A stretch of DNA of 64,000 nt from a bacterium (GTDB lineage Bacteria; Myxococcota; UBA727; JAUIJE01). Location of the stretch: contig JAUIJE010000005.1 in NCBI GenBank assembly GCA_030431455.1, positions 387,460-451,459 on the forward strand, written 5' to 3'. A program made the position numbers and the translations under genes. Below the pieces are notes generated by a model, which was not told where the DNA came from, made no database searches, and saw only the letters and a list, made by a program, of their open reading frames with translations. Shown here piece after piece: positions 46,063 through 48,435 of this stretch; the stretch's first letter is position 1; each line of letters opens with the position of its first letter.

Positions 46063-48435
46063 TCACAGCCCCTCCGTCCACCAATCGGTGGTGTAGGGGA
46101 GGCGGTTCATCGCGCTGCCGCAGTGGGCCTCACCGAGGAGGGTGTGGTAGCTGAAGAACACGTCGACGAAGTTGACCACCAAGCCGAGGGGGGCCTCGAC
46201 CGCGTCGATGGTCTGTTGCTGCCAGACGTCGACCCCGTTGTCGACCGGACCTTCCGGGTCGGGGGTGAACAGCATGCTGTCCGCGGTGATGAGGTTCTGG
46301 ATGCCGGGGTTGAGGGCCACCGATTGGTCGATGCCCCCGCCGAACACCAGCGACTCGTACAGCACCGGGACCTCGATGAAGTCCGCCTCGACCAGGTCGA
46401 ACGCCGCCATCAGCCCGTCGACCACGGTGTCGATGCGGGTTTGGACAATGTCGTTGTGAGACATCAGCTCGGTGTCGTCGAGCAGCTCGGTGACGGTCTT
46501 TTCATAGTCGGTCTGGCCATCTTGCCGCCCGTTGAACACCACCCGGTTGCCCTTGCCGTCCGCTTGCAGGTCGAGCAGGGCTTGGCGGGCCAGCGTGGGC
46601 GACGCGAGGATGATCGCGAAGGGCCGGGTCGCGTCCGCCGAGTAGTCGGGGACCACCTGGAAGATCTCGTCGAGGTGACCGACCACCAACCACTCGGTGG
46701 TGAGCTCGAGGCTCGGGCCTTGCGCTTGCGCGTCCAGCCACGCGACCTGGTTGTCCGCCATGTGGTCCTCGTACGGGAGCCCTTCGATGGTGCCGCCGTC
46801 GCCGCCGCCGCGCAGGATGCGGCCGAGGGGCCAGTCACCCGAGGTGGTGCCGGTGATGGGGGGGAACACCTCGAGGTTGCCGCCGAAGTTGAGCGAGGTC
46901 TGCTGGCCGAGGCCGCTGGGGTAGGCGAAGCCGCGGTTGGGGCCGATGATCTCGCTGGTGTAGAGGCTGACCAGCGGGCTCGGGCGCTCGGTCTGCAGGT
47001 TGGTCTCGAAGGAGACCGCCCCCGCCGCGCCCGGCATCGACTGGTACCCGGTCTGGACGGTGTCCTGGACCCAGCGGTCGCCTTGGTAGGTCTGGGCGCT
47101 GACCTCGTACAGTTCGATCGATTGGTCGAGGTCGTTGACCAGGGGCGTCCACAGGCCGCTGTTTTCGGTGTCGCCGCCGGGGATGTTCATCACCGCGAGG
47201 CGGGTCGGGGTCTGGAGGTTGTCGGGGAGGATGACCGGGGCCACGCGGAACGCGACCTCGTCGTACGACACCAAATCCCCCGCGGGGTTGTTGAGCTCGA
47301 TGCGGATCTTGAAGTGGCCGTCCCAGTCCGCGCTGCGGGAGCTGCGCGCCTCGACGAGCAAGGTCATGTCGCCCGCGATCAGGGTCGCGGGGTCGAGGGC
47401 CACCGGGCCGGGCACGCCGCTGTGCAGGACCGCGTCGTCGGCGTCGTTGAACACCTTGGTGCGGACCGCGGCGTTGTCGGGCACGACCACCATGTTCACG
47501 GTCCAGTCGGCCGCGATGTTGGCTTGTTGGGCCACCACCACCCGGGCCATGTCCTCTTTGTCCGCGGCGCCTTCGATGGTGGCGTTGAGCGCGTCGCGGC
47601 CGTCTTCACCGTCGTCGTCGTCCCAGTTGACCATCACCACCGCACCGCCGGCGGCGCTCCACACGTCCTCGTCGGTGTCGTCGGTGGCGTCGATGATGCC
47701 GTCGCGGTTGGTGTCGGCGTTGATGTCCGCCACGGGGTCGCCGGGCCCCCCCACCGGGGTGCCGGGGCCGGGGTCGTCCCCGCCGAACACGCCGCCACAG
47801 GTCGTGGTGTCGCCGAGCTGCATGGGCTCGTCGCCGCACAGGTCGTACTCACACTCGCCCGGGTCGGTGGTGCCGGTGCAGTCTTCGTCTTGCACGCCGC
47901 AGCCGCAATCACAGAACCCGTCGTTGTACCAATCGGAGTTGCAGATCCAGCCCGGGGGCGCGGCCATCAAACACTGGGTCGGGTCCGCGGGGTCAAGGTC
48001 GAGCCCTTGGGGGCAGTCGTTGTACATGCAGCTGCCAATGCTGTTGTCCGCACAGTCGCCGTCCAACACGCCACAGCCGCAATCGCAGCCGCCTTGGGGC
48101 TGGTCTTGGTCGCAGAACCAGTCGGGGTTGCAGGTCCAGCCGGCCGGGGCCCCGCCGGCACACGGGTCACCGTCGCCGTCCCCGTCCCCGTCGCCATCGC
48201 CGTCCCCGTCGCCATCGCCGTCGCCGTCCCCGTCGCCATCGCCGTCCCCGTCGCCATCACCGTCCCCGTCGCCGTCCCCGTCGCCGTCCCCGTCGCCGTC
48301 CCCGTCGCCATCTCCATCGCCGTCCCCGTCGCCATCACCGTCCCCGTCGCCGTCCCCGGCGGTATCCATGGGGCAGCCGGCCAGCGGGACGCTGAGGCCG
48401 AGGAAAAGAAACAGCAACAAGGGCAGTCGTGACAT
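46063..48435 (-). CDS. secreted lipoprotein: (Asp-Gly)32 tract, duplicated Cys-rich modules, and a C-terminal eukaryotic-type protein-arginine deiminase (PAD) catalytic domain
   Basis: Start [21 protein letters not shown] (lipobox) at 48433-48435. PAD catalytic motifs line up with human PAD4: [12 protein letters not shown] (cf. DQWMQDEMEIGY, Asp350 region). [11 protein letters not shown]...[10 protein letters not shown] (cf. FGNLEVSPPV...YPLGRILFG). [11 protein letters not shown] (cf. WLSVGHVDEFL, His471/Asp473). [29 protein letters not shown] (cf. [28 protein letters not shown], Cys645). The upstream ~315 aa of the 1105 aa track ORF are spurious. Confidence 0.85.
48166..48357 (-). repeat. 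tandem hexanucleotide repeat encoding (Gly-Asp)32 within the PAD-like gene
   Basis: gtcgccgtccccgtcgccatc... repeats read directly; minus-strand codons gac/gat ggc/ggg. Confidence 0.9.

Follow-up and report, generated by a model that had tools for sequence, protein, structure and literature searches.

A predicted exported peptidyl-arginine deiminase with a linked HEAT-repeat partner gene in a genome of the Myxococcota

Citrullination has been studied almost wholly in animals, where it bears on chromatin regulation, immunity and autoimmunity. Bacterial peptidyl-arginine deiminases (PADs, or PADIs) are known from sequence surveys, and we know of no biological role for any of them. A gene on contig JAUIJE010000005.1 of a bacterium of the Myxococcota (assembly GCA_030431455.1; lineage UBA727, JAUIJE01) raises the question of what such an enzyme would do in a bacterium, and in which compartment. 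The stretch analysed, called the window here, is 64,000 nucleotides (nt) long (contig positions 387,460 to 451,459), and all coordinates refer to it (Table 1). The gene, which we call the PAD gene, has a reading frame that is unbroken over its 790 translated codons. Its product is a PADI-family protein. On the basis of sequence comparison and structure prediction, we put at roughly 65% the probability that it is a peptidyl-arginine deiminase of the bacterial two-domain type (PAD_M+PAD_C) which is exported, binds calcium and acts with a HEAT-repeat protein encoded by the adjoining gene.

Family and catalytic centre

Sequence profiles and a predicted structure agree on the family, and we regard the assignment as secure. 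The PAD_C profile (PF03068) matched residues 390-786 at E = 2.9e-67; the score was 227.8 bits (cut-off 25), and the match took in positions 3-394 of the 395 in the profile. The middle-domain profile, PAD_M (PF08527), was not listed when the whole protein was scanned against Pfam and passed only when residues 233-406 were scanned alone (E = 6.1e-7, 29.6 bits, cut-off 24.8). PAD_N (PF08526) gave no match at E ≤ 1, and its N-terminal position is taken by cysteine-rich modules. A phmmer search of PDB sequences returned PADI1, 2, 3, 4 and 6 exclusively, with human PADI1-4 matching across residues 239-787 at E = 8e-48 to 1e-42. Neither the agmatine-deiminase/PPAD family (PF04371) nor arginine deiminase nor dimethylarginine dimethylaminohydrolase (DDAH) was among the Pfam, NCBIfam or PDB matches at E ≤ 1. 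An AlphaFold2 model of residues 231-790, computed from a 31-sequence alignment, had a mean predicted local distance difference test (pLDDT) score of 93.7. Its top 50 Foldseek matches in the PDB were all PADI1, 2, 3, 4 or 6, with template modelling (TM) scores of 0.74-0.87, and the best of them were substrate- or inhibitor-bound PADI4 (TM 0.86-0.87, root-mean-square deviation 2.4-3.0 Å).

A preliminary description of this DNA, made by a model from the letters alone, had placed the product in the PAD family. The PF03068 and PF08527 matches, the TM score of 0.87 to PADI4 and the intact catalytic residues bear this out and speak against an agmatine or arginine deiminase, and none of the outcomes that it had listed as refuting its reading occurred. 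The superposition on PAD4 that it proposed gave TM 0.86-0.87 with the predicted model. The homology that it saw in the C-terminal ~330 residues is real, but extends over ~550 (residues 239-787), since PAD_M is present too; of the three family profiles it had named, PF03068 matched, PAD_M matched as a separate segment and PAD_N did not match at E ≤ 1. Both PAD_M and the conserved downstream HEAT gene were missing from that description.

To compare individual residues, we aligned human PADI2 (PDB-derived, with D169A reverted) with the window protein and 60 relatives. D458, H587, D589 and C772 all align with the PADI catalytic tetrad in both MAFFT and HMMER alignments, they lie within the catalytic motifs quoted in the preliminary description, all of which are present, and the tetrad is kept in every bacterial sequence examined of the clade to which the window protein belongs. 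R454-W455 and R484 match PADI2 R347-W348 and R373, which we take to be active-site, substrate-contacting residues of PADI structures.

The model is like human PADI4, PADI2 and PADI3 (PDB 1WDA, 4N2C and 7D4Y) in fold over ~570 aligned positions (TM 0.87), and the window protein shares with the human enzymes the D/H/D/C set, an Arg-Trp motif before the first Asp and the calcium cluster of PAD_M. It differs from them in identity (24-31%), in having no cupredoxin-like PAD_N domain, in a degenerate calcium site 2 and in having one cysteine in the aligned region, where the human proteins have 9-13. Human PADIs are cytosolic or nuclear, whereas the window protein is predicted to be exported and lipid-anchored.

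Calcium sites, predicted export and the N-terminal half

Most calcium ligands of PAD_M are in place (PADI2 numbering for the sites), and calcium binding by this domain is predicted to be retained. Site 6 is complete (D241, N243, D245, I247 and D249), in the D125N/E131D form (window N243 and D249) that has been reported for actinobacterial and fungal PADIs (PMC8826395). Site 3 is also complete (N270, D272, D274, D281, D292 and D295), site 5 has a single Asp-to-Asn change (D169 to N284), and site 4 keeps its three shared aspartates, with D389 replaced by N500 here and retained as Asp in most relatives of the clade. Sites 2 and 4 have been described as specific to the clade of cyanobacteria and animals (PMC8826395). 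The degenerate site 2 of the window protein agrees with that account; the exception is position 389, where the window's clade keeps Asp or Asn, unlike the actinobacterial and fungal PADIs, which have Gly at this 'calcium switch' (PMC8826395). With sites 1, 3, 5 and 6 largely conserved and site 2 not, with no PAD_N, with its catalytic residues kept and with a position outside the cyanobacteria and animal clade, the protein resembles the two-domain bacterial and fungal PADIs (PMC8826395). Site 2 is the switch site beside the active centre of animal PADs, and because it is degenerate here, calcium probably switches the enzyme less strongly than its animal counterparts, and such switching may be absent.

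Further features that set the window protein apart from the published two-domain PADIs (PMC8826395) are a Pfam-recognisable PAD_M, a lipobox, a Gly-Asp stalk, cysteine modules and a HEAT partner. Its 17-residue leader has a positively charged n-region (M-S-R3) and a 14-residue hydrophobic core, and is followed by L18-A19-G20-C21, with Pro at the +2 position. This sequence fits the lipoprotein pattern [LVI][ASTVI][GAS]C, looked for in the first ~25 residues, and lipidation is predicted at Cys21. Of the 44 loci of the window's clade and a second Myxococcota clade, 30 have a lipobox-like N-terminus, as against 0 of 17 other loci and no cyanobacterial locus examined. We predict from these patterns that the protein is exported and lipid-anchored outside the cytoplasm.

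The distribution of cysteines is consistent with this prediction. Of the 20 cysteines in the protein, 18 lie in the N-terminal modules; the other two are the anchor Cys21 and the nucleophile Cys772, the latter being the sole cysteine in residues 215-790. Over the aligned PAD_M and PAD_C region the median count is 1 in the window's clade, with counts mostly odd, and 12 in vertebrates; it is 5.5 in a mixed remaining set of cyanobacterial-type, other bacterial, archaeal and one fungal sequence. Mostly odd counts fit a nucleophile plus disulfide pairs, and a thiol enzyme folding under oxidising conditions would be expected to show such a low-cysteine pattern.

After the lipobox comes a tract of exactly 32 Gly-Asp dipeptides, and the lipoprotein signal and this (GD)32 tract had been correctly read in the preliminary description. 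The codons are mixed (GGC, GGG, GGT and GGA with GAC and GAT) and the DNA repeat is imperfect (82-85% matches at periods of 12 and 18), which argues for a protein-level repeat and not a fresh product of slippage. Two independent public short-read assemblies (ERR3420974 and SRR24442552) call the PAD start codon identically and match the window base for base along 13.1 and 5.5 kb. They end at the same base, 48329, which is 29 nt into the tract, so the copy number of 32 comes from the window's assembly alone; these breaks inside the repeat also account for the absence of the full PAD protein from protein collections.

We read the tract as a flexible stalk or linker; relatives have Gly/Ser-rich or Thr-rich lipoprotein linkers in its place. 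Its sole family matches were the Ser-Asp-repeat stalks of staphylococcal adhesins, far below cut-offs, and a Pfam match to 'TrAA12' was rejected as a low-complexity artefact. Like the Ser-Asp stalks of the staphylococcal Sdr and Clf proteins, the tract is a long dipeptide repeat with alternating Asp between an anchor and functional domains; unlike them, it is Gly-Asp, lies on the N-terminal and not the C-terminal side, and belongs to a lipid and not a sortase anchor. The resemblance is one of composition and not of homology. The suggestion that the Asp-Gly tract stands in for calcium sites was also rejected, as the PAD_M ligands are conserved in place and the linkers of relatives are Gly/Ser-rich or Thr-rich.

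Two cysteine-rich modules follow, as the preliminary description had stated, although they are ~57 residues long with eight invariant cysteines and not ~45. The module pattern is W-x-C-x(8-15)-C-D-C-G-C-G-x-x-D-x-D-C-x(6-9)-C-x(4)-C-x(10-12)-C, and module 1 has an additional Cys108, which may pair with Cys92. No Pfam or NCBIfam model matched the modules, and a comparison with PDB sequences found no relative at E ≤ 10. The Notch/LIN-12 LNR calcium-binding repeat (PF00066) was suspected, and tests gave it no support. A search with a profile of the module gave 1441 cluster representatives at E ≤ 1e-3, and a single protein can contain as many as 17 copies. Few of the carriers are named; those that are come from metagenome-assembled genomes (MAGs) of Myxococcota, Deltaproteobacteria or Polyangiaceae, and several carriers start with lipobox-type signals. 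In two PADs, P0007 and L006:1301-3190 (Bdellovibrionales MAG), one copy of the module is inserted inside PAD_M and not before it.

The HEAT-repeat partner and the proposed function

The product of the gene that directly follows the PAD gene has HEAT repeats, a Sec-type signal peptide (MNRNVSFLLGLCVATLSTTALAAG) and a conserved motif (GLNPENYLRFRRPDP) that contains Arg91. A strong terminator-like hairpin beyond the stop codon of this gene is the likely end of a two-gene transcription unit. To see how widely the two genes occur together, we surveyed 80 fetched loci with a profile built from the HEAT reading frame of the window. In 43 of them the PAD gene is directly followed, in the same orientation, by a HEAT relative: 32 of the 34 closest loci, 11 loci of the second Myxococcota clade and 0 of the other 37. 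One of the two exceptions among the 34 closest loci is a sequence that ends 101 nt past the PAD gene. Within this set, the cyanobacterial-type, Paenibacillus and Methanophagales loci had no HEAT partner. The linkage spans Myxococcota, Bdellovibrionales, Planctomycetota and Holophagales (Acidobacteriota), and all inspected partners start with signal peptides. We found no other conserved neighbours beyond four near-identical Planctomycetota contexts, and the conserved unit is therefore the PAD-HEAT pair. The best-conserved stretch of the partner precedes the HEAT array and reads G-[LI]-x-P-x-x-Y-x-x-x-R-x-x-x-P; its arginine, Arg91 in the window, is kept in 42 of 44 partner sequences.

These observations suggest the following course of events. 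The precursor would be exported and lipidated at Cys21, which would become its N-terminus, and the 64-residue acidic (GD)32 stalk would hold the enzyme on the membrane outside the cytoplasm, followed by two disulfide-bonded 8-Cys modules that probably serve in binding or spacing. Ambient extracellular calcium would keep PAD_M loaded. The thiolate of Cys772 would attack the guanidinium carbon of a protein-bound arginine gripped by both aspartates, His587 would assist the departure of ammonia, and water would resolve the thiouronium intermediate to citrulline, so that each reaction would take one positive charge off the target. Hydrolysis of peptidyl-arginine to citrulline has been shown for animal PADs and for a recombinant cyanobacterial PADI (PMC8826395). 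PAD would be co-transcribed and would probably function jointly with the secreted HEAT protein, its partner across four phyla, which may regulate or inhibit the enzyme, serve as an adaptor or, through the near-invariant Arg91, be a dedicated substrate. Candidate targets are proteins that other cells secrete or carry in their envelope, cationic peptides, and the cell's own surface or matrix proteins.

Several points weigh against this proposal. For the window protein and for its whole clade, it rests on sequence and a predicted model. The prediction of export is drawn from sequence patterns, which fit the periplasm and the cell surface alike, and the putative role of the HEAT protein from gene linkage. 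If the compartment is oxidising, the free thiol of the catalytic cysteine may have to be protected. The active centre of animal PADs is organised by calcium sites 1 and 2, and both are changed here. Site 1 is altered (E354 to Q461), and site 2 is degenerate (E352 to T459, D374 to P485, and D370/S371 to Q481/T482, although the alignment at PADI2 370/371 is ambiguous and HMMER instead places E477/T478 there with a 4-residue insertion); activity or regulation may differ from that of animal PADs as a result. PADI4 Arg374, which contacts the substrate backbone, aligns with Ser486. Finally, a scan for the sigma-70 consensus upstream of the PAD gene found no full promoter match.

A wider proposal, which we offer tentatively, is that the PAD-HEAT pair is an unrecognised extracytoplasmic citrullination system of four phyla in which the HEAT protein serves as an inhibitor or immunity factor or as a targeting subunit. 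The tethered PADI would then strip arginine charges from envelope proteins of prey or competitors, from cationic antimicrobial peptides or from matrix proteins. If true, it would be the first physiological role for a two-domain bacterial PADI. The 'predatory or social' lifestyle that the preliminary description gave the host is plausible but was overstated there, as it would follow only from best matches to MAGs of Myxococcota. If the clade is indeed exported and partnered, it offers a testable system made up of an enzyme with a lone catalytic cysteine and its one conserved partner. Such a system could reveal what protein-arginine deimination does for bacteria and how a PAD functions when site 2 lacks the calcium switch of the animal enzymes, and it might provide a naturally secreted, cysteine-poor PAD reagent.

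The partner itself raises an alternative that we consider unlikely, namely that PAD is dedicated to the HEAT protein and either deiminates Arg91 or is plugged by Arg91 as a pseudo-substrate, the partner acting as an inhibitor or immunity factor until the enzyme reaches its destination. The linkage, which is strict over Myxococcota, Bdellovibrionales, Planctomycetota and Holophagales and extends to no other neighbour, the export signals on both proteins and the retention of Arg91 in 42 of 44 partners, within the best-conserved stretch N-terminal to the HEAT array, all point this way. However, a conserved arginine in a helical-repeat protein may be structural only, HEAT-repeat proteins are generic scaffolds, and roles as substrate, inhibitor, chaperone or adaptor are all equally compatible with the linkage.

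We give still less credence to the possibility that PAD acts on small guanidino compounds or short peptides, such as free arginine, agmatine, arginine peptides or cell-wall fragments, in the scavenging of extracellular nitrogen. The pentein superfamily includes arginine, agmatine and dimethylarginine hydrolases with the same Cys/His/Asp chemistry (PMC8826395), and the loss of the PADI4 Arg374 equivalent together with the degenerate site 2 means that the substrate cleft may differ. Against this, PF04371 and the arginine-deiminase families gave no match at E ≤ 1 in Pfam and NCBIfam, the PAD_M+PAD_C architecture and the cleft residues Arg454, Trp455 and Arg484 are of the protein-arginine deiminase type, and the only bacterial relative tested in the literature searched, a recombinant cyanobacterial PADI, is calcium-dependent and acts on proteins (PMC8826395). 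A catalytically silent structural or binding protein, a PADI6-like surface scaffold, is very improbable: PADI6, which is among the PDB matches and is named inactive, reuses the fold without catalysis, calcium sites 1 and 2 are altered here and the fungal sequence P0059 has lost the catalytic Cys and His, but all four catalytic residues are intact in the window protein and in all bacterial sequences of its clade that we examined, and the catalytic cysteine is the one cysteine kept in the domain, which argues for selection on catalysis.

Relatives, known systems and the surrounding DNA

The closest database protein to the window PAD, P0001, is 47% identical to it. A pattern scan with one genome per species gave at least 581 confirmed PADI-encoding stretches, and a published survey (Cummings et al. 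2022, Mol Biol Evol, PMC8826395) reported them for 295 species of bacteria, of which 69 were 'Proteobacteria'. PADI homologues are uncommon yet far from unknown in prokaryotes, and the rarity in bacteria claimed in the preliminary description does not stand. We built a neighbour-joining tree from 512 columns (Kimura-corrected p-distances, 100 bootstraps, one degenerate fungal outgroup); as a distance tree, it is to be trusted for its well-supported groupings alone. Comparison with cyanobacterial and animal PADs, as the preliminary description had proposed, placed the window protein in a clade of 25 sequences with 82% bootstrap support, apart from the clade that holds the cyanobacterial and vertebrate PADIs. 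Membership of the three-domain group of late-diverging cyanobacteria and animals ('Clade Ai', PMC8826395) had been suggested by the PAD_M match and by Asp/Asn at position 389, and is ruled out by the tree and by site 2. The 25 sequences are labelled as MAGs of Myxococcota, Deltaproteobacteria, Bdellovibrionales, Planctomycetota, Holophagales and Vicinamibacterales. In relatives of the clade, the stretch from the anchor to PAD_M is occupied by PKD domains or Gly/Ser-rich linkers, and the window protein is, by its domain layout, one architectural variant within a group of predicted lipoprotein PADs.

That bacterial two-domain PADIs exist is already known, the PAD_M+PAD_C type having been defined by Cummings et al. 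2022 (PMC8826395). The text of that paper does not contain 'secreted', 'signal peptide' or 'myxo', and our literature searches on myxobacterial, lipoprotein or HEAT-linked PADs returned nothing relevant. Three features, each as predicted here, are new in that they are undescribed in the literature searched: the architecture of an exported lipoprotein with one cysteine in its PAD domains, the strict linkage to a secreted HEAT protein, and an 8-Cys module that lacks annotation. The module points to an unannotated repeat family with about 1400 representative proteins.

Two bacterial enzymes invite comparison. Porphyromonas gingivalis PPAD is calcium-independent and uses the type IX system for its export. 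In lifestyle it is an analogue of the enzyme proposed here, being a bacterial cysteine deiminase that acts outside the cytoplasm on proteins or peptides. It is not of the same family as the window PAD: it is an extended agmatine-deiminase-type enzyme of highly divergent sequence without PAD_N and PAD_M (PMC8826395). The 'cyanoPADI' of Cyanothece sp. PCC 8801 is bacterial and belongs to the same Pfam families as the window protein; it is a three-domain, active, calcium-dependent enzyme (PMC8826395), of cytoplasmic type and assayed in vitro, and in the literature searched no other bacterial PADI has been characterised biochemically. Unlike the window protein, it retains PAD_N in degenerate form, its calcium sites 2 and 4 are complete, and it falls in a different clade of the tree.

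Other PADIs in our set depart from both patterns. PADIs from Paenibacillus, Methanophagales archaea, an Oceanospirillales MAG, Solirubrobacteraceae and Reyranellaceae (L051, L057, L061, L066, L069, L070, L072 and L038; match regions ~6001-7617) have the full animal/cyanobacterial-type ligands of sites 2 and 4 (E352, E354, D370, S371, D374 and D389). These eight have ~100-140 residues before PAD_M and lie near the cyanobacteria and vertebrate clade in the tree, and the 'three-domain-like' type may extend beyond cyanobacteria and animals. In Heteroscytonema crispum (L036:2956-7785) and a Desulfuromonadales MAG (L063:3850-7644), PAD_M and PAD_C form the C-terminus of proteins of 1265-1610 residues that also contain OmpA-like and PG_binding_1 domains and whose similar N-termini give a sub-threshold match to DNA_circ_N, a phage Mu-type domain. 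They would represent a separate PAD architecture, cell-wall-binding or possibly tail-associated. In bacteria, PAD domains thus appear in combination with several kinds of surface or cell-wall-binding module.

Table 1. Positions of the PAD gene, its partner and neighbouring features in the window
Feature	Position	Strand	Basis or remark
PAD lipoprotein precursor gene, 790 aa, stop codon included	46063..48435	-	translation, Pfam and PDB matches
Signal peptide with lipobox L-A-G-C, residues 1-21 (predicted)	48373..48435	-	sequence pattern
(Gly-Asp)x32 acidic low-complexity tract, residues 27-90	48166..48357	-	
Cys-rich module 1, residues 97-157, WxC...CDCGCGxxDxDC...C...C...C	47965..48147	-	alignment
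Cys-rich module 2, residues 160-214, 8 invariant Cys	47794..47958	-	
Gly/Pro-rich linker, residues 215-238	47722..47793	-	sequence
PAD_M, immunoglobulin-like middle domain, residues 239-405	47221..47721	-	PF08527, PDB alignments
PAD_C, catalytic (pentein-fold) domain, residues 390-786	46078..47268	-	PF03068, model
Asp458 codon (PADI2 D351 / PADI4 D350)	47062..47064	-	alignment
His587-Leu-Asp589 codons (PADI2 and PADI4 H471, D473)	46669..46677	-	alignment
Cys772 codon, nucleophile (PADI2 C647 / PADI4 C645)	46120..46122	-	alignment
Shine-Dalgarno-like GGAG	48442..48445	-	7 nt 5' of the ATG at 48435; read from sequence
HEAT-repeat protein gene, 339 aa	44987..46006	-	begins 57 nt past the PAD stop codon; HEAT_2 E = 1e-5
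Terminator-like hairpin, 12-bp stem and T-run	44938..44966	-	21 nt past the partner stop codon; consensus match
Divergent intergenic region between the PAD and 2-oxoglutarate-Fe(II) (2OG-Fe(II)) oxygenase genes, 207 nt	48436..48642	.	presumed promoter region
TTGACA hexamer in the PAD/oxygenase intergenic region	48545-48540	-	
2OG-Fe(II) oxygenase-family gene	48643-49341	+	divergent from the PAD gene
MORN-repeat protein gene, 694 aa	49347-51431	+	divergent from the PAD gene

The PAD gene resembles the surrounding DNA in GC content, and its flanks are ordinary chromosomal genes encoding PolA, an HrpB-like helicase, Dus, uridine kinase, and TANGO2-like, MORN-repeat and 2OG-oxygenase proteins. The oxygenase and MORN-repeat genes are not kept beside PAD genes in other loci. 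The best non-self relative of the PolA protein is 59% identical to it, and its named matches are from MAGs of Deltaproteobacteria, Myxococcales or Myxococcota, so that the host probably belongs to a lineage of the Myxococcota of which no close relative has been sequenced. The promoter of the PAD gene is presumed to lie in the intergenic region upstream of it, which is locally AT-rich (GC 0.51, compared with ~0.69 in the window). This region also contains an imperfect 14-nt inverted repeat at 48547-48576 (TGAAGATGTACTTA / TAAGTACGTTTCCA, core GTACTTA-TG-TAAGTAC), a palindrome that could be an operator.

Elsewhere in the window, the product of 25510-27984 (-) is a VIT/vWA-type protein that resembles 'marine proteobacterial sortase target' proteins, and that of 38686-40329 (-) is an MXAN_6640-like putative metalloprotease with an HExxH motif, both below the family cut-offs. 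These two are further candidates for secreted proteins. The sole Rfam match in the window is one transfer RNA gene at 12781-12864 (+).

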